Shown piece after piece: positions 10,867 through 29,916 of a DNA stretch of 30,560 nt. The position numbers and the translations under genes are program-made. The DNA lies in the NCBI GenBank assembly GCA_964492585.1, contig CAZBKU010000002.1:1-30560 (forward strand), read 5' to 3'. Numbering within the stretch: position 1 is the first letter of the stretch; each line of letters begins with the position of its first letter. The notes under the pieces were generated by a model. That model saw nothing but the letters and a program-made list of their open reading frames with translations, was not told the DNA's origin and searched no databases. The DNA is from an uncultured Thermoplasmatales archaeon. GTDB lineage: Archaea; Thermoplasmatota; SW-10-69-26.

Positions 10867-11766
10867 ATGGTCTCGGCGGCGACCCTCCTGCTCGCCGGCC
10901 TGGCCGTGGCCCTGCTGCTCTCCCCTGCAGCCATCGCCCAGGAAGGCAACCACACCGCCGGCGAGGACGGCCACGGGCACCGCGCCTTGGAAGCCGGCGA
11001 GGACGTGGACATCCGGCTGGTCGCCGCTGTCGCCGGGGGAGCCGCTCTGGTGACCTTCGGTGGGGGCATGCTGGTCCTGACCGGTCGCCAGGTCAGCGAC
11101 CTGCGCATCCACCTGCTCCTGGGGATCACCGGCGGCCTTCTGCTATCGATCGCCTTCGTCGACCTGCTGCCCGCCGCACTTGAGAGCGATCACGGCACCC
11201 GGTGGACCATGGCCCTGGCCCTGCTGGGTTTGCTGGGCTTGCACCTGGCTGTCGGCGAGCGCCACGGTCACGACCACAGCGGGCACGAGGCCCACGCCCA
11301 CCACGAGACCAGTCCCGTGCACTCGGGCCAGCTGGCCCTGGTGGCGTTCCTGGCCCTAGCCGTCCATCGCTTGGTCGACGGGCTGGTCCTGCCCGCCGCC
11401 TTCGCCGCCGACACCAGCGCCGGGCTGGGTGCGGCCGGCGGGATCCTGCTCCACCAGCTGCCCGATGGCATCGCCGGTGCCTCGCTCTTCGTGGCCGCCG
11501 GCTGGTCGAAGGGCGACGTGGCCAAGGGGCTGGCCACCCTTGCCCTGTTCACCCCGCTCGGCGCCGGGGTCGGGCTCTTCCTCACCGGGATCTCGGGCAT
11601 CCTGCCGCACTTGATCGGCCTTGCGGCCGTCACCTTCATCTTCGTGGCCTTGGCCGAGCTGCTTCCCGAGCTCGAGAGCCCCCGGTACCGGTGGGTCGTG
11701 GCCGGCGGGTTCGTGATCGGCTACGGCCTGCTGGTGCTCCTCGAGCTGGCCACCGGGCACCTCTGA
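10867..11766 (+). CDS. ZIP family metal transporter with N-terminal extension
   Basis: GGLLLSIAFVDLLP, His-rich loop HGHDHSGHEAHAHH, metal-site helices HRLVDG and HQLPDG, and FVALAELLPE. ATG 10867 preferred. Confidence 0.85.
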   Translation: MVSAATLLLAGLAVALLLSPAAIAQEGNHTAGEDGHGHRALEAGEDVDIRLVAAVAGGAALVTFGGGMLVLTGRQVSDLRIHLLLGITGGLLLSIAFVDLLPAALESDHGTRWTMALALLGLLGLHLAVGERHGHDHSGHEAHAHHETSPVHSGQLALVAFLALAVHRLVDGLVLPAAFAADTSAGLGAAGGILLHQLPDGIAGASLFVAAGWSKGDVAKGLATLALFTPLGAGVGLFLTGISGILPHLIGLAAVTFIFVALAELLPELESPRYRWVVAGGFVIGYGLLVLLELATGHL

Positions 11767-15989: not shown

Positions 15990-16301
15990 GTGAACATCCA
16001 TTCACTTGTCCGGTGCCTCGCCGATGAGACCCGGTTGACCGTGATCCAGGAGCTGGCCACCGAGGAGGAGCTGTGTGTCTCCGATCTGGTCGACCGGACC
16101 GGTAAGGAGCAGACCAACGTCAGCCACCATCTGGCCGAGCTGCGGACCTGCGGCCTCGTCGAGGGGCGCCAGGAGGGCCGGTTCGTCAACTACCGTCTGG
16201 CCCACCCGCGCCTGGGCAACGTCGTGGCCGACCTTGAGGCCTTGGCCGAGCACATCGCGTGCACAGAGCCTGAGGTCTGCCTGACCCAAGGGTGCTGCTG
16301 A
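15990..16301 (+). CDS. arsR: ArsR/SmtB family repressor
   Basis: LADETRL, CVSDL, VSHHLAELR and GRFVNYRL winged HTH; C-terminal C...C...CC; heads the ars cluster. Confidence 0.9.
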   Translation: MNIHSLVRCLADETRLTVIQELATEEELCVSDLVDRTGKEQTNVSHHLAELRTCGLVEGRQEGRFVNYRLAHPRLGNVVADLEALAEHIACTEPEVCLTQGCC

Positions 16302-17038
16302 TGACAGCCCGGCTCCCGGGAAGCTGGCGCCCCGAGCTGGCCGAGGCCATCGCCACCTTCTCCCTGGTCCTGGCGGGCTGCGGGGCGATCGTCGTCGACA
16401 GCCTGACCGGCCAGCTCGGCCACCTGGGCATCGCGTTGACCTTCGCCCTGGTGATCTGCGTGATGGTCTACGCCACCGGGCACGTCTCCGGGGCCCACAT
16501 CAACCCGGCGATCACCGTGGCATTCGCCGCCACCGGACACGTCCCCTGGCGTCGGGTCCCCCGATACATCGGGGCCCAGGTGGCCGGCGGGATGGTCGCC
16601 GCTGGCATCCTGCGCAGCTTATGGGGGGCCACCGCCCTGCTAGGGACCACGACCGTGGCCCCGGGGTTGGGGGTCTGGCAGGCCGTGGTGCTCGAGGTCC
16701 TGGCCACGGGCTTGCTGGCTTTCGTGATCGCCAGCGTGGCCACCGACGCTCGCGCCCAGGCTCCGGCTGCCGGTCTGGCCATCGGTCTGGCCGTCGGGGC
16801 CGGCTCGCTCTTCATCGGGCCCATGACCGGCGGCAGCCTGAACCCCGCCCGCTCGATCGCCCCGGCCCTGGTCTCCGGCCAGCTCACCCACCTTTGGCTC
16901 TACCTGGCCGCCCCGGTGGCTGGTGCGGTCGTCGCCATGGGGCTCTACGAGGTCGTCCGAGCTGGGACCAGCCCCCACGTGGGCCGGATGCAGGAGACCC
17001 CAGAAGCGTCCGCAGAACCCGTCGAGGTGACCCCATGA
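16301..17038 (+). CDS. MIP/aquaporin channel, probable arsenite efflux (AqpS/AqpN-like)
   Basis: Two NPA boxes (SGAHINPA, GGSLNPARS); TGATG overlap with arsR. Confidence 0.9.
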   Translation: MTARLPGSWRPELAEAIATFSLVLAGCGAIVVDSLTGQLGHLGIALTFALVICVMVYATGHVSGAHINPAITVAFAATGHVPWRRVPRYIGAQVAGGMVAAGILRSLWGATALLGTTTVAPGLGVWQAVVLEVLATGLLAFVIASVATDARAQAPAAGLAIGLAVGAGSLFIGPMTGGSLNPARSIAPALVSGQLTHLWLYLAAPVAGAVVAMGLYEVVRAGTSPHVGRMQETPEASAEPVEVTP

Positions 17039-18119: not shown

Positions 18120-18923
18120 TCATGATCGAACCTCGTGGAGGGGGTGACTGATGCCGACGGCCTGCTCGACATCGGTCCATGTGCGCACGCGCAGAGGGTT
18201 GCTGCGCGCTGGCACGTCTTTGTTGTACGGGTGATCCATCAGAAGGCTCATCGAACCGTCCGCGGCGGCCATCAGGACATTGTGGGGCGAGTCGTCGATG
18301 AGGAGGTCGTACCCGAGCTTCCGGGAGGCCTCCATCACGAGCTCGTGGTGCGGGATGTCGTGGCGCTCGAGGAAGAGCTCGGTGACCTCCCGGCTCTGCT
18401 CCCCACGGGCGGTGACCACCTCGACCCGGTGCCCGGCGTGGACCCAAGCGGCCATGACCTCGGCAGCTTGGGGGTCGCGCGGTGGCCGCCGGTGGAGGAC
18501 GGGGTCGGTCTCGATGTCGTCGAGGACGTCCCGCACGCAGCGCCACGTCAGGTCCTTCTCCCGGACCGCCCTGTACTGGAAGAAGTCCCAGTATCGTAGG
18601 CCCTCCTCGGCCAGGTCGATGCCGTGGGCATCGCGGAAACCTCGCAGGATGTAGGGGATGTGGTCGAAGAGGACCCCGTCGAAGTCGACAGCGATGCGCA
18701 GAGAGGTCTCAAGGGGACGAGCCTCTCCGGGAGGATCCACGCCGGTGGTGGGGCCACGGGCTGGCTCGTCGGTGCCTTGGCCGCGATCGCGGCGAGACGT
18801 GGGAGGAGCGTCGGCTCGGCGCGTGGGGCCGGCCCGGCGGACCCGGTCGACGGGGTGCGGCCCGAGCCATGTGCCGAGCCCGCTCACCCCGTTACCTATC
18901 TGCTCTCGGTGGTTCTGTGTCAT
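18120..18923 (-). CDS. HAD phosphatase, 5'(3')-nucleotidase NT5C-like (paralog 1)
   Basis: IAVDFDGVLFD, VVTAR, LIDDSPHN and DHPYN motifs. ATG 18923 gives a ~70 aa low-complexity extension; TTG 18712 is an alternative start. Confidence 0.85.
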   Translation of the reverse strand: MTQNHREQIGNGVSGLGTWLGPHPVDRVRRAGPTRRADAPPTSRRDRGQGTDEPARGPTTGVDPPGEARPLETSLRIAVDFDGVLFDHIPYILRGFRDAHGIDLAEEGLRYWDFFQYRAVREKDLTWRCVRDVLDDIETDPVLHRRPPRDPQAAEVMAAWVHAGHRVEVVTARGEQSREVTELFLERHDIPHHELVMEASRKLGYDLLIDDSPHNVLMAAADGSMSLLMDHPYNKDVPARSNPLRVRTWTDVEQAVGISHPLHEVRS

Positions 18924-18951
18924 GCAGGCTGACACTGGACCTGCTGGACCA

Positions 18952-18988
18952 TCTATACTTTCGATGGAAAATATAGAGGCCTCTATAT
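18952..18988. promoter_or_regulatory. AT-rich promoter with perfect 18-bp palindrome
   Basis: ATATAGAGGCCTCTATAT at 18971-18988 and TCTATACT at 18952-18959. Confidence 0.65.
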
Positions 18989-19013
18989 CTCCTTGAGAGG
19001 GTCGCCGCCCCGG

Positions 19014-19619
19014 TCACCGTCGCCGGCCCGATCCTCGGCCCCCCGCCACTTCGGCCACCACCTCCTCGGCATGCGCCCAATCGCGGACACGCAACGGGTT
19101 GTCCTCGGCCGGGTGGTCCCGGTTGTAGGGCTGGTCGAACAAGAGGGCCCTGCAGCCCGCGTCCACGGCCCGGTCGACGTTGATCGGCAGGTCGTCGACG
19201 AGCACATCCCAGTCCGTCTTGTGGTGGACGCCCATGTGGATGTCGTGGTGGGGCACGTCGTTGTGGTCCAGGAAAAGCTCGACGCTCTCCCGGGCACGGG
19301 TCGGCCGGGAGGTGACGATGTGGACGATCAGACCCTGCTCGTGCCACCCACCGAGCACATCCAGGGCGTAGGGATCCAGCGGTCGGGTCCGGTGGATGGG
19401 CTCCTGGACCTCCAGGTGACGGAAGACCTCCCAGATCTGATCCTCGGAGAGCCCGGCCTGGCGGACGGCCGGATGCTCGGAGAGGTTCCACTGCCAGCTC
19501 TCCACCGGCGAGATGTCCACGCCGTGGAGCTCCTGGAACCCCCGGATGATGTGGGGGACCTGGTCGAAGAGGACACCATCGAAGTCGATGGCCAACCTCA
19601 GGGCGTCGCCGTCGGTCAC
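19014..19619 (-). CDS. HAD phosphatase, 5'(3')-nucleotidase NT5C-like (paralog 2)
   Basis: LAIDFDGVLFD, IVTSR, LVDDLPIN and DQPYN motifs. Confidence 0.85.
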   Translation of the reverse strand: MTDGDALRLAIDFDGVLFDQVPHIIRGFQELHGVDISPVESWQWNLSEHPAVRQAGLSEDQIWEVFRHLEVQEPIHRTRPLDPYALDVLGGWHEQGLIVHIVTSRPTRARESVELFLDHNDVPHHDIHMGVHHKTDWDVLVDDLPINVDRAVDAGCRALLFDQPYNRDHPAEDNPLRVRDWAHAEEVVAEVAGGRGSGRRR

Positions 19620-19680
19620 GGGGGTTGGTAGCTGGTCCTCCTACTTGAGCCACGGGGACGCCTCCCGAAGGGACCGGCGG

Positions 19681-20400
19681 CTACCCGTTCTCCTCATCGA
19701 TCGGCTGGAACCAGGCGTCCAAGAGGTCGTCCAGGGTGGCGTGGCAGGCCTCGAACCGGTCAGGCTGGGAGAGCATCTCCTCGAGGGTCTGGATGTAGGG
19801 CCCGTCCTGGCCCAGGTCCCCGGGGCTGGCCTCGCCTAGGTGTTGGACGTCAGCCTGGTCCATCTCCAGGTGGAACTGGAGGCCCAGCACGTGCTCCTCG
19901 TAGGCGAAGGCCTGGTGCTTGCAGGCCTTGCTCCGGGCCAGGTGGACGGCCCCCTCGGGCAGCTCGACGGTCTCGGCGTGCCAGTGGAGGACCTCCTGGC
20001 CGTCCTCCAGGTGCCGACCGACCGGGTGCTCTGCGGCCGCCGGCGTGGTCTGGATCGGTGCCCAGCCGACCTCGGGCTGGTCGGCCTCGACGACCGTGCC
20101 GCCGAGGACCTCGGCGATCAGCTGGGCGCCCAGGCAGACCCCCAGGGTCGGGATGCCAGCCTCGATGGCGGCCTCGATGAGGCTCCTCTCGCCGGGCAGC
20201 CAGGCGTGCTCCTGCTGGTCGTGGACGCTCATGGGCCCGCCGAGGACGACCAGCCCATCGACGTCGTCCAGCTCGGGCAGGGCCTGGTCCTGGTAGAGCT
20301 GGGTCCGGGCGAGCTTGATATCGTTCTGGAGGGCCCACCAGCCGATGTGCCCTGGACCCTCGAAGGGCACGTGCTGCAGGACGTGGAGACGCCGGTCCAT
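19681..20400 (-). CDS. Class I glutamine amidotransferase (GMP-synthase-like, stand-alone)
   Basis: QHVPFEGPG, LGGPMS, GVCLG nucleophile elbow and QFHLE His-Glu; ATG 20400. Confidence 0.92.
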   Translation of the reverse strand: MDRRLHVLQHVPFEGPGHIGWWALQNDIKLARTQLYQDQALPELDDVDGLVVLGGPMSVHDQQEHAWLPGERSLIEAAIEAGIPTLGVCLGAQLIAEVLGGTVVEADQPEVGWAPIQTTPAAAEHPVGRHLEDGQEVLHWHAETVELPEGAVHLARSKACKHQAFAYEEHVLGLQFHLEMDQADVQHLGEASPGDLGQDGPYIQTLEEMLSQPDRFEACHATLDDLLDAWFQPIDEENG

Positions 20401-20437
20401 GGCAGGAGAACGTGGCTGGGGCTCTTGAGTCCAGCTA

Positions 20438-21145
20438 TCAGAGCGCCGGCCCGATCCAGGCATCCAGAACGTTCTGCAGGCGCTGGTGGGCCTCCCGGAA
20501 CCTCTCGGGCGGCTCGATCATCTCGGAGACCGGCTGGACGAAGGGGCTGTCGGTGCTCAGGTCCTCCGGCCGGGCGGCAGCCAGACGGGAGACGTCCGAG
20601 GGACCAAGGCCCAGGTCGAACTGAAGCGCCAGGACGTTGTCCCCGTAGCTGAACGCCTGATCCGAGGCCATCTCCGCGGTCGCCAGCTCCGTGGCCGCCG
20701 GAGGGATGTCCAGGACCCGGGTCGACCAGTGGAAGCCTTCGAACACCGACGGGAGGAAGGAGACCGCGTGATGCTCGTGGCCGGCCTCGGTGAGCTCGAC
20801 CGGGAACCAACCGACCACCGGGGCCTTGGCACGGTCGGTGCTACCGCCGAGAAGGTGGGCTAACAGCTCGGCCCCCCGGGCGACGCCAAGGACCGGCAGC
20901 CCGTCCTCGATGGCCTGTGTGAGGAACACGCGCTCGTCCTCGAGCCAGGGATGGGTCTTGTCGTCGTTGGGCACTGGGGGAGCCCCGATGACCGCCACGG
21001 CGTCCAACGTGCCCACATCTGGGAACTTGTCGCCTTGGTCCGGGATGGTGCCTGCGACGTCCATCCCCTCCCGCAGGGCCCACCATCCGATGTGCCCTGG
21101 CTCGGTGTAGGGCAGGTGCTGGATGATGTGCAGACGAGGGGGCAC
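20438..21145 (-). CDS. Class I GATase paralog lacking the catalytic triad
   Basis: Collinear with the neighbour, but GVARG replaces GVCLG and QFDLG replaces QFHLE. Confidence 0.85.
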   Translation of the reverse strand: MPPRLHIIQHLPYTEPGHIGWWALREGMDVAGTIPDQGDKFPDVGTLDAVAVIGAPPVPNDDKTHPWLEDERVFLTQAIEDGLPVLGVARGAELLAHLLGGSTDRAKAPVVGWFPVELTEAGHEHHAVSFLPSVFEGFHWSTRVLDIPPAATELATAEMASDQAFSYGDNVLALQFDLGLGPSDVSRLAAARPEDLSTDSPFVQPVSEMIEPPERFREAHQRLQNVLDAWIGPAL

Positions 21146-21268
21146 GCCTACCGGTTAGAAGCTCAATGCCCATAGTCGTAGTGTGGCACGGGACCCCGCG
21201 GGAGCGGCGTTCGGTCCATCCCGAACGGCTCTAGAAGGACCTTATACGCTGCCGGGTACCTGGGACCG

Positions 21269-22090
21269 ATGAGAGCTACCCCCGGTCTCATACCCTTGGT
21301 GCTGAGCCTGACGATCCTCTCCGTCGCCGGTCTTGCCTTGGCCGACGGTGATGCCTCCACAGCCCAACAAGCCCACGGCGACATCTACCTCACCGCCCGC
21401 GAACCGACCGACGAGGTCCACGACCCTTGGAACACCACGATGGAGGCCCTCAAGGCCGACCACTCACCGGTCGTCCGGGCCCTCCAGACGCCGGAGGAGG
21501 CGGTGGCGATCACCCAAGAGGAGCACGAGGCCATGCGACCCTTCTGGGACACGATGAGCGACCACGACGCGCTCCTGATCGAGGGTGATCACTGGGAGAT
21601 CCTTCTCATCATGGAGGGCCACGGTGACGGTGATGACGACACCGCGGCCCGGCCCGTCTCCGGGGACGCCAGCTCGGGGACCGCGGGCCAAGCACCTATG
21701 CGCATCGTGGCCAGCCACCCCCCGCCTGGCGAGCCAGCCACCCCGGCCCTGGTGCTCACCCGCGCAGAGCTCCAGGAGCGCTACCCGCCGGCGGCCCTGG
21801 CCCTGGAGACGCCCGAGCGCCTGGTCGAGGTCCCCGAGGGCCAGGAGGCCCACATCCACCAGCTCTACGAAGACCTCGAGGCCGGTGGGTACGCGGCGTT
21901 CGAGATCGACGGCGAGGCCTGGATGGTCTCCATCGCCGAGGCCGCCCCGGGCGTGCCCCCGTCGGGCGACGCCGCGGCCACCGGCGACGTGGACGCCCAA
22001 GGCGAGGCCACCAGCGACGCCAGCTTCCTGGGCCTGGCGGTCTTCCTCGGGGTCTCCGGCATGGCTGCCCTGGTCTGGCGGCCCCGCTGA
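21269..22090 (+). CDS. Secreted, C-terminally anchored acidic protein with a duplicated domain
   Basis: Signal peptide, two similar ~75 aa units, and a terminal hydrophobic helix plus WRPR; CTTATA box at 21241-21246. Confidence 0.75.
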   Translation: MRATPGLIPLVLSLTILSVAGLALADGDASTAQQAHGDIYLTAREPTDEVHDPWNTTMEALKADHSPVVRALQTPEEAVAITQEEHEAMRPFWDTMSDHDALLIEGDHWEILLIMEGHGDGDDDTAARPVSGDASSGTAGQAPMRIVASHPPPGEPATPALVLTRAELQERYPPAALALETPERLVEVPEGQEAHIHQLYEDLEAGGYAAFEIDGEAWMVSIAEAAPGVPPSGDAAATGDVDAQGEATSDASFLGLAVFLGVSGMAALVWRPR

Positions 22091-22179
22091 GCCTCACGAT
22101 GACCAAGGTCCGACCGTCGAGCCGTTCCCCACGCGTCGCCTCCCATCCTGGCCCCGACGGCTCGGACCTCGGCAACACC

Positions 22180-22203
22180 CCCGGGAGGGGCAACCCTCCC
22201 GGG
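22180..22203 (+). terminator. GC-rich hairpin between convergent genes
   Basis: CCCGGGAGGG-GCAA-CCCTCCCGGG, a perfect 10-bp stem with a GNRA loop on the plus strand, followed by a pyrimidine tract. Confidence 0.5.
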
Positions 22204-22213
22204 CCTCTCCTCC

Positions 22214-22909
22214 TCACCCGATCGTCACCCGTTCACCCTCGACCATGTAGTGGATCTTCTCGGCCATCTTGCAGACGTTGTCGGCGCACCGCTCGAGGTA
22301 CCGGGCGATCATCATGTAGTAGGCGTAGGCCTCCAGGTGCTGGGGATCCTCGGCCATGTGGGTCAAACACTCCCGGAAGATCGACCACCGGAGGTGGTCC
22401 ATCTTGTCCTCCCATTCGATGAGCTGGTCGAGGTCGAAGGTCGCCTCGTCGTGGTAGGCCTCGAGCACCAGGGCAAGCATCCGGGCGGTCGTCTCGACCA
22501 TCTCGGGGATGTGGACCAGGCTGTGGAAGTGCTCGTCGTACCTCCACTGGGTCGTGATCTGGGCCAGGTCCTTGCCGTACCGACCGACCCGGTTGATGTA
22601 GGTGATCAGCTTGAGCGCGGCCCCGATGGCCCGCATGTCCCTGGCCATGGGCTGTTGGCGAGCGACCAGGAGCAGGGCCTCCTGCTCGATCCCGTCGTCT
22701 AGGTCGGCCAGCTCATCCTTCTTCCTCAAGACATCGTTGGCCTTGGCCTCGTCGAGCTCGACCAGGGAGGTGGCCCCTTCCTGGAGCATCCACTCGGCCA
22801 GGTCGGCCATCTCGTTGACCCTGGCTTTCAGGTCGGCCAACTGCTCGTCGAAAGCTCGGCGGGCCCGGGTGCCCGGGGCCACGTTACGCGGGGAGGGATC
22901 CTCGTCCAT
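22214..22909 (-). CDS. phoU: Phosphate signalling protein PhoU
   Basis: RQQPMARDMR, INRVGRY, D...E...D repeats and RYLERCADNVCKMAE; last gene of the pst operon. Confidence 0.95.
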   Translation of the reverse strand: MDEDPSPRNVAPGTRARRAFDEQLADLKARVNEMADLAEWMLQEGATSLVELDEAKANDVLRKKDELADLDDGIEQEALLLVARQQPMARDMRAIGAALKLITYINRVGRYGKDLAQITTQWRYDEHFHSLVHIPEMVETTARMLALVLEAYHDEATFDLDQLIEWEDKMDHLRWSIFRECLTHMAEDPQHLEAYAYYMMIARYLERCADNVCKMAEKIHYMVEGERVTIG

Positions 22910-22927
22910 GGTGTCAGTCTCCTGGGG

Positions 22928-23782
22928 TCAGCCGAAGCGGCCGGTGATGTAGGCCTCGGTACGGTCGCGACGGGGGCTCTCGAAGATCTGCTCGGTCTGG
23001 CCGAACTCCACCAGCTCCCCCATGTAGAAGAACGCGGTGTAGTCCGAGATCCGGGCGGCCTGTTGCATGTTGTGCGTGACGATGGCCACGGTGTAGTCTT
23101 CTTTGAGCTCGACGATGAGGTCCTCGATCTTCCCGGTGGCGATGGGGTCCAAGGCCGAGGCGGGCTCGTCCATGAGCAGGACGTCGGGCCTCACTGCGAT
23201 GGCCCGGGCGATGCACAGGCGCTGCTGCTGGCCGCCGGAGAGGCCTGTGGCCGGGTCGTCCAGCCGGTCCTCGACCTCGTGCCAGAGATGGGCGGCCTCC
23301 AGGGCGGCCTTGACCTCGGCGTAGAGCTCGTCCTTGTCCCATCGCTTGTCGAGCTCGAGGCCATAGGCGACGTTGTCGAAGATCGACTTGGGGAAGGGGT
23401 TGGGTTTCTGGAAGACCATGCCCACGTGCCGACGGAGCATGACCGGGTCGACATCCGGTCCGTAGATGTCCAACCCACCCAACCGGACGTCGCCCTCGAT
23501 CCGGGCGCTCTCGATGAAGTCGTTCATCCGGTTCAGGCACCGCAGGAAGCTGGATTTCCCGCAGCCGGAGGGACCGATGAACGCGGTGACCCGTCCCTTG
23601 GGGACCTCCAGGCTGAGGTCCTTGAGCGCGTGGTTGTCCCCGTACCAGAGGTCCAGACCTTGGATCTCGAACACGGTTTGTTCGGTGGGTCGGTCCATGG
23701 CCGTCTCGATCCTGCCGGTGGGCTCGACAGGCGGGGGCTGGCGGGCGTCGGTGCCGGGACTGGCTTGGGTGGTAGGCGTCAT
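22928..23782 (-). CDS. pstB: Phosphate ABC transporter ATPase
   Basis: [44 protein letters not shown] and YITGRFG. Start ATG 23782 or GTG 23788. Confidence 0.97.
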
Positions 23783-23784
23783 GG

Positions 23785-24669
23785 TCACCACGGGGATCGA
23801 TCCTTGAAGCGGTTGCGTATCAGGATGGCCACCAGGTTGAAGCTGAGGGTCAAGAGCAGGAGCACGACGGTGCCGGCGGCGGCCAGGTCCCGGAACTCGG
23901 GCTGGGGGTTGGCCGCCCAGTAGAAGGTCTGCAGCGGGAGGGCCGAGTAGAGGGACATGGGCCCGTCGGGCAGGAAGAAGACGGCCGTGGCGCCGCCGAC
24001 GATGATCAGGGGCGCGGTCTCCCCGATGGCGCGGGCCAGGGCCAGGATGCTACCGGTCAGGATGCCTGGCAGGGCCGCGGGGAGGACGTGGTCTTTGACG
24101 ACCTGCCACCGGCTGGCTCCCAGACCGAAGGCGGCGTCGCGGACAGAGCGGGGGACCGCCTTGAGGGCTTCCTCGGTGGAGACGACGATCATGGGCAGGC
24201 TGAGCAGGGCCAGGGTGCACGCCCCGGCCAAGAGGACCTGGCCCCAGCCGAACCAGCGGACGAAGATGACCAGGCCCAGCAGGCCGAAGACGACGCTGGG
24301 GACGCCGGCCAGGTTGGCGATGGCCGTCCGGATCATCCGGTTGAGGCGGGTCGGCTTGGCGTACTCGTTGAGGTAGATGGCCGCGCCGATGCCCAGGGGC
24401 AGCGTGAGGCCCAGGGTGAGCAGGCCCAACCAGATCGAGCCGACCAGAGCCGACTTGATCCCCGCCCTGGCTGCGTCCCGGGCAGGGAAGCTGGTCAGGA
24501 AGCCCCAGTCGACGTAGGGCAGACCGATGGCAGCGGTGCGCCACACCAGCCAGCCAAGCATGAGGGCGGCCAGGCTTGAGGCCACGGCGAGCAGGCCGCG
24601 GCCGATCCAGCCCTTGAGCTTGCGTTCGGTCGAGAGCTCCTCGAGCTCGATGGCACCCGGATCGGTCAC
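23785..24669 (-). CDS. pstA: Phosphate ABC transporter permease PstA
   Basis: [29 protein letters not shown] and ALPLQTF. Confidence 0.95.
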
Positions 24670-25610
24670 TCGTAGACCTCCTGGTAGCGCCGGATGATGC
24701 GTTGGGCACCCACGTTGATCACGAACGTGATGACGAACAGGACGAGCCCCACGGCGTACAGGGAGTAGAACCGGGGGCCCGCCTGGACGATGTCGCCCTG
24801 GGCGGTCTGGGCGATGTAGGCGGTCATCGTCTGGATGCTGGCCAGGAAGTCGATGGCCATGCTCGGTCGGGCGCCGGCAGCCAGGGTCACGGCCATGGTC
24901 TCACCGATGGCTCGCGCGAACCCCAAGAGGGAGCCGGCGATGATGCCGGAGAGCGCGGCCGGCGTGGTGACCTTGGTGGCCACCTCCCACTTCGTGGCTC
25001 CCAGGGCAAGGGCGCCGTGCTTGAGCTCCTCGGGCACCGCCGAGATGGCATCCTCGGCGATCGAGGTGATGATCGGGAGGACCATGAAGGTCAGAACGAT
25101 GACCGCGTTGAGGGCGTTGAAGACCTCGGCCCCCAGGTGTTGCTGGAGGATCGGCGAGATGACGACCACGGCGAAGAACCCGAACACGATGCTAGGCACG
25201 CTGGCCAGCATCTCGATCGTGGGTTTCAGGACGCCGCGGACGCGCCTGGAGGCGAACTCGCTGAGGTAGATGGCCGTTGCCAGACCCAGGGGGATGGCGA
25301 AGAGGGACGACCCCACGGTGACCATGAGGGTCCCGTTGATCAGCGGGAGGATCCCGTAGATCCCGCTCACCGGCTCCCAGTTGGTGCCCGTGAGGAAGGC
25401 GATCACGCTCACGTCCTCGAAGAACGTCAACGAATTGGTGAGGAGGACGTAGAAGATCGCACCGGTCACGACGATGGCCAGGAAGGCCGCCAGGAAGAGG
25501 ACCCCTCGGATGGCCATCTCCTTGTAGCGGGCGACCTCGCGACCCACGCCTGAGGACAGCTTCTCCTCTAGCGTAGGACCGCTGCCGAGGCTCTCTGCGG
25601 CACCGGGCAT
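24666..25610 (-). CDS. pstC: Phosphate ABC transporter permease PstC
   Basis: AIYLSEFA, LASVPSIVFG, EDAISAVP and ARAIGETMAV. ATG 25610 preferred; ATG 25721 is in frame. Confidence 0.95.
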   Translation of the reverse strand: MPGAAESLGSGPTLEEKLSSGVGREVARYKEMAIRGVLFLAAFLAIVVTGAIFYVLLTNSLTFFEDVSVIAFLTGTNWEPVSGIYGILPLINGTLMVTVGSSLFAIPLGLATAIYLSEFASRRVRGVLKPTIEMLASVPSIVFGFFAVVVISPILQQHLGAEVFNALNAVIVLTFMVLPIITSIAEDAISAVPEELKHGALALGATKWEVATKVTTPAALSGIIAGSLLGFARAIGETMAVTLAAGARPSMAIDFLASIQTMTAYIAQTAQGDIVQAGPRFYSLYAVGLVLFVITFVINVGAQRIIRRYQEVYE

Positions 25611-25739
25611 CAGGGCTCGCCCCTGGAAGGTCGCGCGGAGAGGGGCGATCGACGCCGACCCCCTTGCAAGCCAAGGCGCTTGGCCGACAGCACGATCCAG
25701 ACCAGACGTTCGCCTCCGCATACCCCTTTCCTACTGATG

Positions 25740-25775
25740 CTCTATAGTGATATAGAGACTACATAGAGTATAGAG
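25740..25775. promoter_or_regulatory. AT-rich promoter/operator between pstS and pstC
   Basis: Inverted repeat CTCTATA-GTGA-TATAGAG (25740-25757) plus further CATAGAG (25762) and TATAGAG (25769) units. Confidence 0.65.
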
Positions 25776-25801
25776 AGGAGTGGATGGCAGCCACGTCAGC
25801 G

Positions 25802-26743
25802 TCAGTCGGTGGCCCCGCCGCTCAGACGAGCCCGCTGCTCATCGAGGGTCGCCTCGTCCAAGGAGACGTAACCGACCTCGGGGACCAGCTCCTGGCCATC
25901 ACCCATGGCGTACTCGAAGTACGTGTGGAGCGGCGTGCCCGGCGTGGGGACCCCGTCGGTGACCATGAAGATCGGTCGAGAGAGCGGGGTGTAGCTCCCG
26001 TCCCCGATGGTCGCCTGGGAGGGCGTGACGGGGTCGCCTTGGCCGTCCTTGATCGGGACGACCTTGAGACGGTCCCGGTTCTCATCGTAGTACGCGAACC
26101 CGAAGTACCCGAGCGCATCCCGGGATTGGGCCACACCCTCCACCAGGACGTTGTCGTCCGCGCTGGGGGTGTAGTCCTGCCGGGGGGCGGCATCTTCACC
26201 GAGGATCTCCTCGACGAAGTAGTCGTAGGTCCCGGAGTCGGAGTCCGGGCCGAAGAGGGTGATCTCGCGATCGGGCCACCCCTCCCTGACGTCGCTCCAC
26301 GTCTCGGCCCGGTCGTCTGGTCGCCAGATATGCTCGAGCTCTTGGATGGTGAGGTGGTCGACCCAGTCGTTCTGGGGGTTGACGGCGACCGTGATCCCGT
26401 CGAAGGCCACCTCCCAGGTGATCGGTTCGATCCCGTTGGCTTGGCAGGTCTGGATCTCGCTCTGCGTCAGCTCCCGCGACATGTCGCCGATGTCGATCTC
26501 GCCGGCGCACAGCTTGGAGGCGCCGGCCCCGCTGCCGCCGCCGGCGACGACGACCTGGATGCCCTCCTTGGACATCTCCTCGGCCCATGCCTCGGCGACG
26601 GGGAAGACCGTCGACGAGCCGGCCTGTTGGAGGACCTGGCCGCCGCCGTCTCCGGCGCACCCAGCCAGGGCCACGCTGGCCATCAGGAGGGCAGCGAGGA
26701 CGAGCCGTCCCGGAACGGTACCGACTTGCACCTTATCGCTCAT
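25802..26743 (-). CDS. pstS: Phosphate-binding lipoprotein PstS
   Basis: Lipobox ALAGC, AGSSTVFP, GGGSGAG, DSGTYDYF and YTPLSRPIF; ATG 26743. Confidence 0.95.
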   Translation of the reverse strand: MSDKVQVGTVPGRLVLAALLMASVALAGCAGDGGGQVLQQAGSSTVFPVAEAWAEEMSKEGIQVVVAGGGSGAGASKLCAGEIDIGDMSRELTQSEIQTCQANGIEPITWEVAFDGITVAVNPQNDWVDHLTIQELEHIWRPDDRAETWSDVREGWPDREITLFGPDSDSGTYDYFVEEILGEDAAPRQDYTPSADDNVLVEGVAQSRDALGYFGFAYYDENRDRLKVVPIKDGQGDPVTPSQATIGDGSYTPLSRPIFMVTDGVPTPGTPLHTYFEYAMGDGQELVPEVGYVSLDEATLDEQRARLSGGATD

Positions 26744-26835
26744 GTCGTGCGCGAGGGTTCGTCGTGACACGAACCGCCGAGGCCACCGGCACGACTAACC
26801 CCTTTCCCACAGAATCTCCAACCCCTCCATAGTAA

Positions 26836-26853
26836 TCTATATTCTATGTAGAG
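26836..26853. promoter_or_regulatory. AT-rich element in the divergent pstS / AbrB-PhoU promoter
   Basis: TCTATATTCTATGTAG (26836-26851) is 15/16 identical to the reverse complement of 25759-25774. Confidence 0.65.
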
Positions 26854-26890
26854 CCTAAATATACAACAGACAGGAGCGTGTTGGACAGAT

Positions 26891-27901
26891 ATGGAGCTCC
26901 GCAAGGTCCAGCTCACCGGCGGATCAAGCCTCACCGTCACCCTCCCCAAGACCTGGGCGGACAAGGCCGGCCTTGAACCAGGGGACGTCGTCGGTTGCAC
27001 CGAGCAGCCCGACGGCAGCCTGGGCATCCAGGCCCACGCCAAGGGGGACCGGGCCGTGACCCGCTACCGGATCGATGCCGCGGGAGTCACCAGCGAGTAC
27101 CTCTTCCGCAAGATCATCGCGGCCTACCTGATGGGGTACGACGCGATCGAGGTCGACGCCAACAAGCCCCTTTCTGCTGAGGCGCGCCAGTCCATCCGAC
27201 GGGCCGTGACCCGGATCATGGGCTTGGAGGTCATCGAAGAGGACATGACCTCGGTCACGGTGCAGGACTTCCTCGACCCCAAGGAGTTCCACGTCGACAA
27301 GGCCCTTCGCCGGATGGACATGCTGACCCAGGCCATGCAGCAGGAGGCAGAGATCCTGCTCAAGGACCCTGAGACCTCCACGAGGGACTCCCTGCGGGAT
27401 CGCGACGACGAGGTTGACCGGCTGTACTGGCTGGTCAACAAACAGTTCCACGCGCTCTTGCGAGACGTGAGCTACGCCAGCAAGATGGAGCTCTCACCCA
27501 GCCAAGCCCTGAACGTCCTCTTGGTCGCGCGGATGACCGAGCGGACGGCCGATCACGCTGACCGGGTGGGCCAGGAGGCCGTCGAGCTCCCTAGGACCCG
27601 GGAGCGCGACGTCTTCATGGAGGAGCTGGCCGAGGCCTGGCGCCGGGCCAGCGGGCTGTTCGCCGACGCCATGGCCACCTTCCGCAAGCGCGATTCGGCC
27701 GAGGCCGATGAGATCATCGAGAAGGCCAACCGCTTCCAGGACGACCAGGCCGCCTACCTCAAGAAGGCCACCGACTTCGGCTCTGAAGCCGTGACCCACC
27801 TGGCCTTCATCATCGAGTCGATCGGCCGGACGGCCGCCTACGCAGCCGACATCGCCGAGGTGGCGATCAACCACAAGGTCGCCAGCACCGACGACGCGTG
27901 A
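26891..27901 (+). CDS. Archaeal phosphate uptake regulator (AbrB/SpoVT DNA-binding domain fused to PhoU repeats)
   Basis: RKVQLTGGSSLTVTLPKTWA N-terminus, RKIIAAYLMGYD, DDEVDRLYWL and ERTADHA. Confidence 0.92.
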   Translation: MELRKVQLTGGSSLTVTLPKTWADKAGLEPGDVVGCTEQPDGSLGIQAHAKGDRAVTRYRIDAAGVTSEYLFRKIIAAYLMGYDAIEVDANKPLSAEARQSIRRAVTRIMGLEVIEEDMTSVTVQDFLDPKEFHVDKALRRMDMLTQAMQQEAEILLKDPETSTRDSLRDRDDEVDRLYWLVNKQFHALLRDVSYASKMELSPSQALNVLLVARMTERTADHADRVGQEAVELPRTRERDVFMEELAEAWRRASGLFADAMATFRKRDSAEADEIIEKANRFQDDQAAYLKKATDFGSEAVTHLAFIIESIGRTAAYAADIAEVAINHKVASTDDA

Positions 27902-27955
27902 GACGCCCACGAAATATTCATACCTCAGCATCCGATGGCGGCGGTAGGTGCATCC

Positions 27956-28582
27956 GTGGGCCTGAAGGAATGGATCATCCCCCAGGACGACAAGTTCTTC
28001 GACATCCTGGATGAGATCGCCAGCAACGGGGTGGAGGCGGCCGCCGCCCTTGAAGAGCTCCTCCAGGATGGCGGTGACGCCCGGGTCCGCTACGAGAAGA
28101 TCAAGGAATACGAGCACCATGGCGACGAGCTTGTCCACGACATGTACGAGCTCCTCAACCGCTCGTTCATCACGCCCATCGACCACGGGGACCTCGCCGA
28201 GATGGTCAGCGGGCTGGATGACTTCGTCGATTACATCGACGCGTCGGCCAGCCGCATCACGCTTTACAAGGTCGAACCCACCGAGGGCATGCGATCCATG
28301 GGATCGTTGATCCGCCGTCAAGCAGATCATCTTCAGGACGCCGTGCACGCGCTGCGCGATCTCAAGGAGCCCAAGGCGGCCGAGCGGGCCACCATCGAGG
28401 TTCACTCCCTGGAGAACGCGGCCGACACGATCCTCAACGAGTCGCTGGCCACGCTCTTCGAGGGGGATGATGCGATCCACATCATCAAGCACAAGGAGGT
28501 CTACGAGAACCTCGAGACCGCCACGGACGCCGCCGAGGAAGCCGCCAACATCATCGGCGACATCCTCATGAAGAACGCCTGA
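27956..28582 (+). CDS. DUF47 phosphate transport regulator (PhoU-like)
   Basis: IKEYEHHGD, FITPIDHGD, LDDFVD, LENAAD and KEVYENLETATD. GTG 27956 preferred; ATG 27935 is in frame. Confidence 0.9.
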   Translation: MGLKEWIIPQDDKFFDILDEIASNGVEAAAALEELLQDGGDARVRYEKIKEYEHHGDELVHDMYELLNRSFITPIDHGDLAEMVSGLDDFVDYIDASASRITLYKVEPTEGMRSMGSLIRRQADHLQDAVHALRDLKEPKAAERATIEVHSLENAADTILNESLATLFEGDDAIHIIKHKEVYENLETATDAAEEAANIIGDILMKNA

Positions 28583-28595
28583 ACCGGGGACCTCG

Positions 28596-29774
28596 ATGGC
28601 TTTCGAATGGTGGATGACCGTCGTCGGACTCGCCCTGCTTTTCGACTTCTTCAACGGGGTCAACGATGCGGCCAACAGCGTGGCCACCATCGTGGCCACC
28701 CGGGTCCTTACCCCCGTGTCCGCGGTCGCGTTGGCCGCGGTGATGAACCTCGCGGGACCCTTCCTCTTCGGGACCGCGGTGGCCAAGGCCGTCGGATCCG
28801 GCCTGGTCGACGTGAACATCCTGACGACCAACGTGCTCGCCGCCGCCGTGCTCGGGGGCATCTTCGCCACCGCTCTGGCCACGGCCTTCGGGCTACCGAT
28901 CTCGGTCTCCCACTCCTTGGTCGGCGGCCTTCTAGGCGCCGGCTTCGCGGCGGCCGGGGTCGGCGCTCTGCTTCTGCCGACCGCCGGTTCCCTTCTCGTC
29001 GCCGGCGAGTGGATCGTCGGGGGTTTCGTGGCCGGTGGCCTGCTCGGTGTGGTCGGGGGGTCCCTGTCCGGCTCCGAGCAACTGCGCATCCCGGGCTTCG
29101 TCGCAGGGGCCGTGGGGGCCACCTTGGCGCTGGTCTACGGCATCGCCACCGGTGCCGTAGCGCTCAACAAGCTGGGGGCCACGCTCATCTTCATCGTCTT
29201 CTCGCCGTTCATCGGGTTCCTGGGCGCCTTCGCCCTGGGCACCATCATCATCTGGATCTTCGGTGGTGCCGACTCGCGCAAGGCCAACTGGTGGTTCCGC
29301 AAGCTCCAGCTCCTCTCGGTCTCGGCCTTCTCGCTCTCCCATGGGACCAACGACGCGCAGAAGACCATGGGCATCATCGCAGCCCTGCTCTTCGCCAACG
29401 GGGTCATCGACACGTTCTTCATCCCGACCTGGGTCATCATCGCGGCGGCCGTGGCCATCGCGCTGGGGACCTTCATCGGTGGATGGCGCGTCGTCGAGAC
29501 CGTCGGGCACCGTCTCACCAAGCTCGAGCCCTACCAGGGGTTCAGCGCCGAGACCGCCGGGGCCAGCGTCCTCTTCTGGATGGCCAGCCTCGGGGTCCCC
29601 GTCTCCACGACCCACGCCATCACCGGGTCGATCATGGGCGTCGGCGCCACACGCCGCCTGACCGCTGTCCGCTGGAACGTGGCTCGGCACATCATGGGCG
29701 CCTGGGTGCTGACGATCCCGGTGGCCGGTGCGGTGGCCTGGATCGTCTACGAAGGCATCATCTACGTCCTCTGA
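28596..29774 (+). CDS. pit: PiT family inorganic phosphate transporter
   Basis: Paired signatures NGVNDAANSVAT and SHGTNDAQKTMG, plus PVSTTH. Confidence 0.95.
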   Translation: MAFEWWMTVVGLALLFDFFNGVNDAANSVATIVATRVLTPVSAVALAAVMNLAGPFLFGTAVAKAVGSGLVDVNILTTNVLAAAVLGGIFATALATAFGLPISVSHSLVGGLLGAGFAAAGVGALLLPTAGSLLVAGEWIVGGFVAGGLLGVVGGSLSGSEQLRIPGFVAGAVGATLALVYGIATGAVALNKLGATLIFIVFSPFIGFLGAFALGTIIIWIFGGADSRKANWWFRKLQLLSVSAFSLSHGTNDAQKTMGIIAALLFANGVIDTFFIPTWVIIAAAVAIALGTFIGGWRVVETVGHRLTKLEPYQGFSAETAGASVLFWMASLGVPVSTTHAITGSIMGVGATRRLTAVRWNVARHIMGAWVLTIPVAGAVAWIVYEGIIYVL

Positions 29775-29831: not shown

Positions 29832-29879
29832 ATCGGCTAGATGGGGACGCTAGCTCCGAACCATCAGGGACGTAAATTC

Positions 29880-29916
29880 TTTATAGAAGTTTGAACACAT
29901 GTAGGAAGCGAGGTGA
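29880..29916 (+). promoter_or_regulatory. TATA box and SD for hsp20
   Basis: TTTATAG at 29880-29886 and GAGGTGA at 29910-29916 before ATG 29923. Confidence 0.7.

Follow-up and report, generated by a model that had tools for sequence, protein, structure and literature searches.

A repeated, probably Pho-box-type element at phosphate promoters of an uncultured Thermoplasmatales archaeon, a candidate operator of the adjacent AbrB-PhoU protein

The switching of phosphate uptake in archaea is known in outline only, from pho boxes in one haloarchaeon and from a widely annotated, uncharacterised 'PhoU-type' regulator; to our knowledge, archaea are without PhoR/PhoB. The pst operons of Halobacterium salinarum (pst1 and pst2) carry pho boxes that are required for induction, and 'PhoU' transcription factors are assumed to be their readers (Furtwangler et al. 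2010, as summarised in PMC6560208). HVO_2374 (PhoU2) of H. volcanii is a predicted DNA-binding PhoU next to pst1 (PMC6267482), AbrB-PhoU proteins are listed as predicted transcription factors in the P. furiosus repertoire (PMC6316755), and TK2245 is a chromosome-associated protein (PMC7325993). The present analysis concerns a stretch of 30,560 bp (~65% GC; hereafter the window) from contig CAZBKU010000002.1 of an uncultured Thermoplasmatales archaeon, in which a 16-bp sequence occurs twice in a phosphate-uptake cluster: at site A, in the promoter region shared by the divergent genes pstS and abrB-phoU, and at site B, in the spacer between pstS and pstC. The best explanation, which we hold with somewhat better than even confidence, is that the 16-mer is a local, duplicated archaeal operator of the Pho-box type, to which the neighbouring AbrB-PhoU protein most likely binds, at or beside the TATA box and B recognition element (BRE).

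As in Halobacterium, so far as the boxes there are described in that summary, the element is an archaeal cis-element of a pst promoter, linked by publications to 'PhoU'-type regulators that carry a DNA-binding domain, and found without PhoR/PhoB. The two come from different phyla (Thermoplasmatota here) and are likened by promoter context, not by box sequence; activation through the Halobacterium boxes was, by the same summary, shown by reporter assays, whereas the box of the window is known from sequence comparison alone. In the window, unlike in Halobacterium, boxes are further present in front of a nucleotidase gene and at the proposed internal promoter of pstC. The placement of site A is that of an archaeal Pho box, within a pst promoter and 3-4 nt from TATA-like boxes. 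Bacterial Pho boxes (CTGTCAT-N4-CTGTCAT in E. coli, 11-nt direct repeat units in Streptomyces; PMC2275107, PMC4415409) resemble it in that each promoter, be it of pstS or of a phosphate-scavenging gene, holds several short repeats placed roughly one helical turn apart, and the bacterial Pho regulon likewise comprises transporters and phosphatase-type enzymes. Their sequence is unrelated, however, and the core in the window is palindromic rather than purely a direct repeat; a bacterial PhoB/PhoP box (CTGTCAT or TTAACA type, 11-bp periodicity) was not recognised here, the 11-bp spacing occurring once. The proposed reader also differs, being a one-component AbrB-PhoU protein acting on TBP/TFB instead of a winged-helix response regulator acting on sigma-70 RNA polymerase.

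Two further groups of regulators are relevant. Proteins of the SpoVT/AbrB fold (AbrB, MazE, VapB, MraZ) read DNA with a dimeric swapped-hairpin head, bind palindromic or arrayed, often AT-rich and loose operators, are mostly repressors and are commonly autoregulated. The two-fold AbrB dimer would suit a palindromic box, and arrays and variable half-sites are usual for this fold; the window protein differs in that its AbrB domain is fused to an alpha/beta domain and a PhoU bundle and in that its targets would be archaeal promoters. Archaeal regulators that act at the BRE/TATA region include the repressors MDR1, LrpA and Phr and the activators Ptr2 and TFB-RF1. A site beside or over TATA/BRE, as found here, leads to the same expectation of control over recruitment of TBP/TFB or RNA polymerase; the protein family is a different one, and here two divergent core promoters seem to share a single central site.

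The 16-mer, read directly, is TCTATATTCTATGTAG at site A and TCTATACTCTATGTAG on the opposite strand at site B (coordinates are given in Table 1). An earlier, sequence-only reading of this DNA had reported 15/16 identity between them, and this was borne out: a search with TCTATAYTCTATGTAG on both strands of the window, allowing up to 3 mismatches, returned these two matches only. That reading had further held such a match to be unlikely in a GC-rich background, and dinucleotide shuffles of the entire window agree, with 0.02 such matches expected by chance. Because both copies sit in AT-rich islands of the GC-rich sequence, a stricter null was run in which just these two islands were shuffled; a match of at least 15/16 on either strand arose in 1 of 3000 trials. 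The repeat is not due to chance.

The 16-mer itself, on the other hand, did not prove to be the conserved unit. It is made of TCTATA-type half-sites, and what is conserved is a palindrome of ~10 bp together with such half-sites. The core of site A, TCTATGTAGA, lies in the 3' part of the 16-mer and is one mismatch from the 10-bp palindrome wCTATATAGw, the consensus being roughly TCTATATAGA. For comparison, 172 related loci were collected, denoted by labels such as L001. Among them, the closest relative, L161, encodes an AbrB-PhoU protein that is 92% identical by BLASTP and 90% by global alignment (L162, 82%), carries both sites A and B, and has an exact CTATATAG at the place homologous to the TCTATGTAGA box. 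Whereas 4-fold synonymous sites agree between the window and L161 at only 51-60%, identity is ~85-95% in the site A core and in the 3'-terminal 45 nt of site B. Within site B, the palindrome arms are identical in L161, while the spacer has changed from TCAC to TGCC and one internal spacing is 9 bp instead of 7 bp; since the arms were kept and the spacer and spacing were not, purifying selection acts on the units and the overall architecture and not on the exact 16-mer.

Site A has the layout of a compact bidirectional promoter, with a TATA-like box to either side of the central box; the two diverge and stand ~32 bp apart, and the central box overlaps both BRE positions. Facing pstS is the unit CTCCATAG, which reads CTATGGAG on the strand of that gene and lines up with boxes of the ATATATAG type in orthologues; on the other side, TAAATATA is probably the TATA box of abrB-phoU, for which orthologues have TACATATA. 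An alignment of the divergent promoter in 11 lineages (protein identity 67-92%) revealed a conserved module of 70 columns, corresponding to 26794-26863, with a single 1-nt gap, in L015. The TACATATA TATA block is best conserved (mean column identity 0.82), followed by a promoter-proximal block (0.79; TTGGAGATTCTGTGGGAAAGGGGT in the window) and the unit region (0.68), with the flanks at 0.39-0.46. As the promoter-proximal block precedes DUF47-pit and not pstS in L015, it is regarded as a portable promoter module rather than a part of pstS. Among the homologue loci, 16 of the 26 shared pstS/abrB-phoU promoters contain the box with at most 1 mismatch. The two 16-mers of the window stand in the same orientation and at nearly the same distance from the ATGs of abrB-phoU (-55..-40) and pstC (-53..-38), and 4 nt after each follows a TATA-like box, TAAATATA and TATATCAC respectively, a feature which the sequence-only reading did not contain.

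Two candidates at this promoter were set aside. TATGGAG at 26890 was considered as a further unit, but it overlaps the ATG-GAG (Met-Glu) start and its upstream T is not conserved, so it is probably a coding by-product. The inverted repeats around pstS could be viewed as the ends of a mobile or invertible cassette; no recombinase is present, the units also occur at the NT5C nucleotidase gene, orthologues with site A only have the units, and the arms lie inside promoter modules. As to pstS itself, the N-terminus V-(S/P)-R-R-(T/N) that follows its probable GTG start (window 26743-26770, -) is kept in L161 and L001, and the lipobox LAGC after the V-x-R-R start suggests a twin-arginine-exported lipoprotein.

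If the element were the plain TATA/BRE of this genome, it should stand at most promoters. The 7-mer TATRGAG/CTCYATA has seven copies in the window, all in three AT-rich islands; six are intergenic and the seventh, at 26890, spans the abrB-phoU start codon. The other seven AT-rich islands hold TTTATA/TTATAA-type boxes and none of the 7-mer units. In a clade set of 30 non-redundant loci with 80 AT-rich islands, the 30 islands that adjoin pstS, abrB-phoU, NT5C or pit contain 21 copies of CTCYATR and 11 sites of CTATATAG, and the pstS-pstC spacers of the window and L161 contain 7 further CTCYATR copies. Neither sequence was found in the remaining 48 islands of the clade loci, where TTTATA boxes occur instead. 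These counts answer the refuting condition set in the sequence-only reading and support an element that is phosphate-specific and not the generic TATA/BRE of the genome. Within the clade, the flanks of the 7-bp unit show no strong extra conservation. A home-made expectation-maximisation motif finder, applied to 30 upstream regions, collapsed onto TATATATA, and k-mer counts per locus were used in its place; an extended 12-mer, TATRGAGAATCC, was specific to phosphate promoters and occurred in ~12 of 30 loci, and it was retained as a lineage variant only.

The box extends well beyond this clade. In a pan-archaeal set of 156 loci (1.31 Mb) with AbrB-PhoU homologues of 28-69% identity, CTATATAG occurs 84 times, and 54 of these lie within 200 nt upstream of an abrB-phoU start, in 2.4% of the sequence. 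Once duplicate promoters were removed, the exact box was found in 49 of 142 distinct upstream regions (start codons in metagenomic loci being estimated), where shuffles averaged 1.1 and never exceeded 5; with up to 1 mismatch, it was found in 97 of the 142 against 23 expected. Counting words de novo in the upstream regions gives CTATATAGA as the top 9-mer and ATCTATATAG as the top 10-mer, and the positions that flank the box are W, never G or C. Its frequency is equal in AT-rich and GC-rich upstream regions. The tie between the element and the abrB-phoU gene is far stronger than could be seen by the sequence-only reading. According to record titles, the loci are from Thermoplasmatota including the DHVE2 group, Methanomassiliicoccales and Proteinoplasmatales, and further from Methanosarcinales/ANME, Bathyarchaeota (Bathyarchaeia) and a metagenome-assembled genome of Promethearchaeota (Asgard). 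Outside the abrB-phoU upstream windows, the remaining 1.28 Mb hold just 30 boxes, of which pit promoters account for at least 6; the exact box is present in 5 of 14 pit promoters away from abrB-phoU, some with arrays at ~9-bp spacing (CTATATAGGCTATATAGTCTATAT), and in 0 of 162 upstream regions of internal pst genes.

One relative, L171 (64% identity), has its own version, GGATTCTCCGGA, common to the abrB-phoU, pstS and pit promoters. Upstream of its pit gene (10955-11501), ~120-nt direct repeats rich in GCCTCCAAGCCTCC are followed by tandem CCGGATTCTCCGGATTCTCC. In the same locus pstS is likewise preceded by GGATTCTCCGGA, and abrB-phoU by the variant CGATTCTCCAGA; the phosphate motif seems to have taken a form peculiar to this lineage. 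In the literature searched, CTATATAG appeared solely as an arbitrary oligonucleotide in a study of Sso7c4. The sequences of the element, their conservation, their specificity for phosphate genes and their association with AbrB-PhoU across archaea are direct results of this comparison. A wider proposition, to which we would give slightly less than an even chance, is that wCTATATAGw is a general archaeal Pho box, the operator of one-component AbrB-PhoU phosphate regulators in Thermoplasmatota, Methanosarcinales, Bathyarchaeia and Asgard archaea, and that lineages such as the present one have copied its module into internal promoters; it would then do in archaea what the PhoB box does in bacteria, in competition or cooperation with TBP/TFB on TATA-like sequence. 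We rate the cross-phylum box as the newest part of the findings, the kind of element, a pho box, being already known.

The resemblance of the box to a TATA box has to be weighed at this point. It could be argued that the boxes are the TATA boxes of a special promoter class, with palindromic TATATA cores suited to bidirectional transcription and read by TBP/TFB only, such that there is no dedicated regulator and phosphate control lies elsewhere. The core is indeed TATATA; relative to the start codons, the pstC palindrome (centred ~27 bp upstream of the ATG) and the NT5C unit CTCTATAT (~27 bp upstream of a GTAT initiator-like site) fit the -26/-27 position of a TATA box, the Methanosarcinales box is just 17-26 nt from the predicted start, and a similar TCTTTATAGA stands at an hsp20 promoter. 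The 16-mers, however, are off the expected TATA position and lie upstream of a separate TATA box, and close relatives have the separate and better conserved TACATATA 4 nt downstream of the box. Three or four units occur per promoter, with arrays at pit promoters, and the flanking C/G and W positions are conserved though TBP needs none of them. The lack of the motif in the 48 non-phosphate islands, with their TTTATA-type boxes, and the maintenance of the same 8-mer in lineages whose upstream GC ranges from 14% to 62% likewise speak against a class of TATA boxes, which we consider quite improbable.

The hsp20 promoter deserves a separate remark. A scan of the window for TCTATATAGA with up to 2 mismatches finds site A, two places in site B and TCTTTATAGA at this promoter. 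The hsp20 gene lies beside the phosphate cluster and has a conserved promoter word, TTCTTTATAGAAG, with TTC...GAA symmetry (window 29876-29888), also present in L163 (1528-1571), L002 (7145-7181), L165 (3581-3632) and L015 (906-953). No other near-match to the consensus in the window lies away from phosphate genes, and the word may serve as an independent operator.

The candidate reader is the AbrB-PhoU protein of 336 aa encoded next to site A. Its confident AF2 model (pLDDT 87.7) begins with beta strands (residues 3-48), continues with an alpha/beta domain (58-126) and ends in a six-helix PhoU bundle, which Foldseek matches at TM ~0.72-0.78 to 1t72, 1t8b, 4q25, 1xwm and 2i0m (~0.77 for the bacterial PhoU structures 1t72, 4q25, 1xwm and 2i0m). 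A sequence search of the PDB gave a weak PhoU match only, the fold search being more informative. The AbrB domain is the best conserved of the three, with 49% identity in distant homologues against 30% for the other two domains, and its motif RKVQxTGGSxxxxLPKxW is invariant in the homologue alignment; as the domain of highest identity, it fits a conserved DNA target. With an AbrB domain, a two-repeat PhoU bundle and phosphate-transporter neighbours, the protein belongs to the AbrB-PhoU fusion family, for which pst or pit lies within 6 kb in 67 of the 111 homologue loci of at least 6 kb. Its closest homologues are from uncultured soil and sediment Thermoplasmatota. The middle domain, with the order beta-alpha-beta-alpha-beta-beta, is covered by no Pfam family; its weak Foldseek matches are to Alba/Sso10b-type DNA/RNA-binding proteins and SepF (E 0.2-0.9, target TM 0.56-0.69).

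The enrichment of the box upstream of abrB-phoU marks that gene as a target and not its product as the binder. It is therefore conceivable, if unlikely, that the phosphate operator is bound by a different transcription factor and that AbrB-PhoU is a mere member of the regulon; it might, for instance, work by contact with other proteins, like bacterial PhoU, whose action involves no DNA binding. The literature searched yielded no binding data and no DNA motif for the AbrB-PhoU family (the primary Halobacterium promoter study being outside its scope), and no report of the motif TCTATATAGA for AbrB, MazE/VapB or MraZ proteins. A different factor would leave the SpoVT/AbrB DNA-binding domain, the best conserved part of the protein, without a role, whereas palindromic and arrayed operators are typical of AbrB-fold proteins. 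Moreover, AbrB-PhoU is the sole regulator-like gene common to all loci, and its homologue TK2245 was recovered in the chromosome-associated protein fraction (PMC7325993).

At site B, an upstream half like that of the abrB-phoU promoter is joined to the TATA-to-start element known from pstS, and the composite ends exactly at the ATG at 25721. The arrangement described in the sequence-only reading was found as given: CTCTATA-N4-TATAGAG is in place, and ATAGAG starts at 25752, 25763 and 25770, with spacings of 11 and 7. The split palindrome is a candidate for an overlap of TATA box and operator serving a leaderless pstC transcript, which is probably what site B produces. A second element shared with site A was not part of the earlier description: 25722-25742 and 26798-26818 are 81% identical as direct copies, with the gene-strand consensus GAGnnTCnGTrGGAAAGGGGT. 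The copy at pstC, GAGCATCAGTAGGAAAGGGGT, matches L161 at 20 of 21 positions, where 4-fold synonymous sites are identical at just 51-60%, and the contig of L162 ends within a variant site B (CCCTATC-TTCTCCATAA-TCTCCGGAGG). The in-frame ATGs at 25721 and 25610, 37 codons apart, are both kept in L161 with no indels, and translation of pstC would begin at the first, on a leaderless mRNA and with a short N-terminal extension, or at the second, behind a leader of 111 nt. The codons of 25610-25721 (-), from the ATG beside the promoter element to the conserved pstC start (MPGAAE.../MASATT...), are equal in number in L161 and are not strongly coding-like (GC content at third codon positions of 0.68 against 0.92 in the rest of pstC; ~30% protein identity to L161); this 37-codon stretch might serve as a leader or, if the mRNA is leaderless, encode a rapidly evolving N-terminal extension.

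A different account of site B is that it is not a promoter at all. It could be an intercistronic RNA element of a single pstSCAB-phoU transcript, for example a hairpin or a site of processing by which the pstS:pstCAB ratio is set, or a functionless recent copy of site A; CUCUAUA-N4-UAUAGAG is able to form a 7-bp hairpin, a stabilising hairpin often follows the binding-protein gene in bacterial ABC operons, recent copying could explain the 15/16 identity, and most orthologues are without site B. The folding of the spacer is ordinary, however (z = -0.75; 38 of 200 shuffles as good or better), the stem is a weak A/U stem of 7 bp in a 65% GC genome without a T-run, as would mark an intrinsic terminator, and Rfam families gave nothing significant across 18700-27000. 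The same units also occur in the non-transcribed DNA of the divergent promoter and at NT5C. A functionless copy fits poorly with the purifying selection seen against L161 and the presence of the site in L162, and both halves of a promoter are reproduced (box-4 nt-TATA and TATA-to-start), the end coinciding with an ATG whose frame both species have kept. We judge that site B is improbable as an RNA element or idle copy and prefer to view it as a promoter.

A third island with units, also absent from the sequence-only reading, lies upstream of an NT5C/HAD-type 5'-nucleotidase gene. Its unit cluster (18952-18988) consists of the palindrome ATATAGAG-GC-CTCTATAT and an extra half-site. A G/C version of the palindrome, ATATGGAGGCCTCCATAT, stands upstream of abrB-phoU in L089, and CTACATAGGCCTCCATAT in L086; the change from TATAGAG-GC-CTCTATA in the window to TATGGAG-GC-CTCCATA in L089 affects both half-sites symmetrically, as predicted for the site of a dimeric protein. 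NT5C genes adjoin abrB-phoU or pst in L002, L009, L085, L086, L089 and L166. The nucleotidase is a candidate member of the Pho regulon and plausible as a phosphate-scavenging enzyme. Two NT5C/HAD 5'-nucleotidase paralogues stand in tandem here (18120-18935 and 19014-19619, both -), the downstream of which has a 60-75-residue Arg/Pro-rich N-terminal extension of non-coding-like codon composition; relatives with Arg-rich extensions adjoin abrB-phoU or pst in L085, L086 and L089. Between the units upstream of NT5C lies a quasi-palindrome, TTTCGATGGAAA (18959-18970), also found in L011/L084 (5888-5899) and L014 (2460-2471), and in L011 and L014 it takes the place of the promoter-proximal block in the pstS/abrB-phoU intergenic region.

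Table 1. Positions in the window of the genes and sequence elements discussed (a dot marks elements given without a strand).
Feature	Position	Strand	Remarks
Site A 16-mer, TCTATATTCTATGTAG	26836..26851	+	Centre of divergent promoter, -55..-40 from abrB-phoU ATG; inside conserved module
Palindromic box, TCTATGTAGA	26843..26852	.	Core of site A, 3' part of 16-mer; 1 mismatch to TCTATATAGA
CTCCATAG unit (CTATGGAG on pstS strand)	26825..26832	-	TATA-like box, pstS side, 3 nt from 16-mer
TAAATATA, probable abrB-phoU TATA box	26856..26863	+	-35..-28 from ATG; orthologues have TACATATA
Promoter-proximal element copy 1, TTGGAGATTCTGTGGGAAAGGGGT on pstS strand	26798..26821	-	Between pstS TATA-like box and 5' untranslated region
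Site B 16-mer, TCTATACTCTATGTAG	25759..25774	-	pstS-pstC spacer, -53..-38 from pstC ATG at 25721
Split palindrome CTCTATA-N4-TATAGAG (spacer GTGA)	25740..25757	.	Centred ~27 bp upstream of pstC ATG
Promoter-proximal element copy 2, GAGCATCAGTAGGAAAGGGGT	25722..25742	-	Abuts pstC ATG
Palindrome ATATAGAG-GC-CTCTATAT	18971..18988	.	Upstream of NT5C/HAD nucleotidase open reading frame
Extra half-site TCTATAC	18952-18958		NT5C upstream island
AT-rich island with 7-mers	26811-26890		pstS/abrB-phoU
AT-rich island with 7-mers	25724-25785		pstS-pstC
AT-rich island with 7-mers	18942-18999		NT5C
abrB-phoU, candidate regulator	26891-27901	+	PF04014, E 2.5e-9 (residues 7-44); PF01895, E 4.9e-15, two stretches
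PhoU_div/DUF47	27935-28582	+	Pfam
PHO4/Pit	28596-29774	+	Pfam
pstS	25802..26770	-	Phosphate-binding protein; Pfam PBP_like_2, NCBIfam TIGR02136; start probably GTG 26770 (compared with L161, L001)
pstC	24666-25721 (or start 25610)	-	Pfam
pstA	23785-24669	-	Pfam
pstB	22928-23791	-	Pfam
phoU	22214-22909	-	Pfam
NT5C/HAD-type 5'-nucleotidase, Arg-rich N-terminal extension	18120..18935	-	Pfam NT5C, E 1.8e-10

In the mechanism proposed for this locus, the Pho box would be the ~10-bp palindrome wCTATATAGw with extra TCTATA/CTCYATA half-sites, marking phosphate-regulated promoters. It would organise four of them: those of pstS and of abrB-phoU-duf47-pit at site A, that of pstCAB-phoU at site B, and that of NT5C. 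At site B, the box-4 nt-TATA geometry of abrB-phoU joined to the TATA-to-start element of pstS would yield a leaderless or near-leaderless pstCAB-phoU transcript. Two AbrB domains would form a two-fold symmetric DNA-reading head that fits the palindrome; phosphate status would be reported by the PhoU bundle, and the access of TBP/TFB would depend on whether the boxes are occupied. Binding by the protein, the direction of regulation, the transcription starts and phosphate sensing by the PhoU domain are all steps that we infer. We lean towards repression when phosphate is plentiful, because most proteins of the AbrB family repress and because at pstS, pstC and NT5C the TATA-like boxes fall together with units. 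Three points speak for activation: the abrB-phoU box is just upstream of the BRE, the TATA boxes are non-canonical, and the boxes of the haloarchaeon are reported to be needed for induction (PMC6560208).

Several points weigh against an operator bound by AbrB-PhoU. The units resemble TATA boxes and at NT5C, pstC and pstS stand about where TBP should bind, and operator and TATA box may partly be the same DNA. Their orientation and spacing vary (7, 9 and 11 bp; head-to-head and tail-to-tail), and the sole other match to TCTATATAGA in the window at up to 1 mismatch is the hsp20 promoter word TCTTTATAGA. The association of the box with abrB-phoU would be equally expected if another factor regulated that gene, and the locus counts are not phylogenetically independent, though the flanks of the boxes differ widely. 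The true start of NT5C is uncertain and may be ~200 nt downstream of the site. Sequencing runs that contain the window sequence are soil metagenomes (DNA); no RNA runs containing this organism were found, so the transcription starts and the internal promoter are placed by geometry alone. Lastly, site B is absent from L002, L004, L006, L011, L164 and L166, which have short or plain pstS-pstC spacers, and a near-box is present in just 1 of 40 pstC upstream regions elsewhere. Because distant orthologues have such spacers, the internal pstC site is taken to be a lineage-specific acquisition, and site B looks like a lineage-specific internal promoter. The claim of the sequence-only reading that pstCAB-phoU has a promoter separate from that of pstS is consequently kept in part: it fits the architecture and the conservation in L161 and L162, and it has to be narrowed to this lineage, given the six orthologues that lack the site.

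The surrounding genes agree with a phosphate-uptake function. Pfam confirmed the gene assignments made earlier for the cluster and, in those cluster genes that were scanned, revealed neither a response regulator nor a histidine kinase, in line with the earlier remark that PhoR/PhoB are missing. Site B is proposed as an additional driver of pstCAB-phoU (22214..25721). On the other side, 33 nt separate abrB-phoU from PhoU_div/DUF47, and the order abrB-phoU, DUF47, pit recurs in L007, L008, L009, L011 and L165; DUF47 and pit are probably co-transcribed with abrB-phoU from site A. Near the phosphate cluster lies a MIP-family channel gene (16292-17038, +). In L171 (3334-4499), genes for MIP, an ArsC-like low-molecular-weight phosphatase and an ArsR-type helix-turn-helix protein come after the pst operon, which suggests that the handling of arsenate and that of phosphate are linked.

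For the AbrB-PhoU family, the locus offers a defined protein together with a defined candidate DNA target, a 10-bp palindrome with half-sites, and a small predicted regulon consisting of pstSCAB-phoU, abrB-phoU-duf47-pit and the NT5C nucleotidase. The internal pstC promoter illustrates how a promoter module may be copied inside an operon. As the same box precedes the regulator gene in several archaeal phyla, one tractable archaeon could speak for the whole family. If the proposal is true, the box could allow the Pho regulons of uncultured archaea to be predicted with nothing but their sequence, and it is a concrete candidate for the DNA switch by which archaea would respond to phosphate in place of the bacterial PhoR/PhoB.

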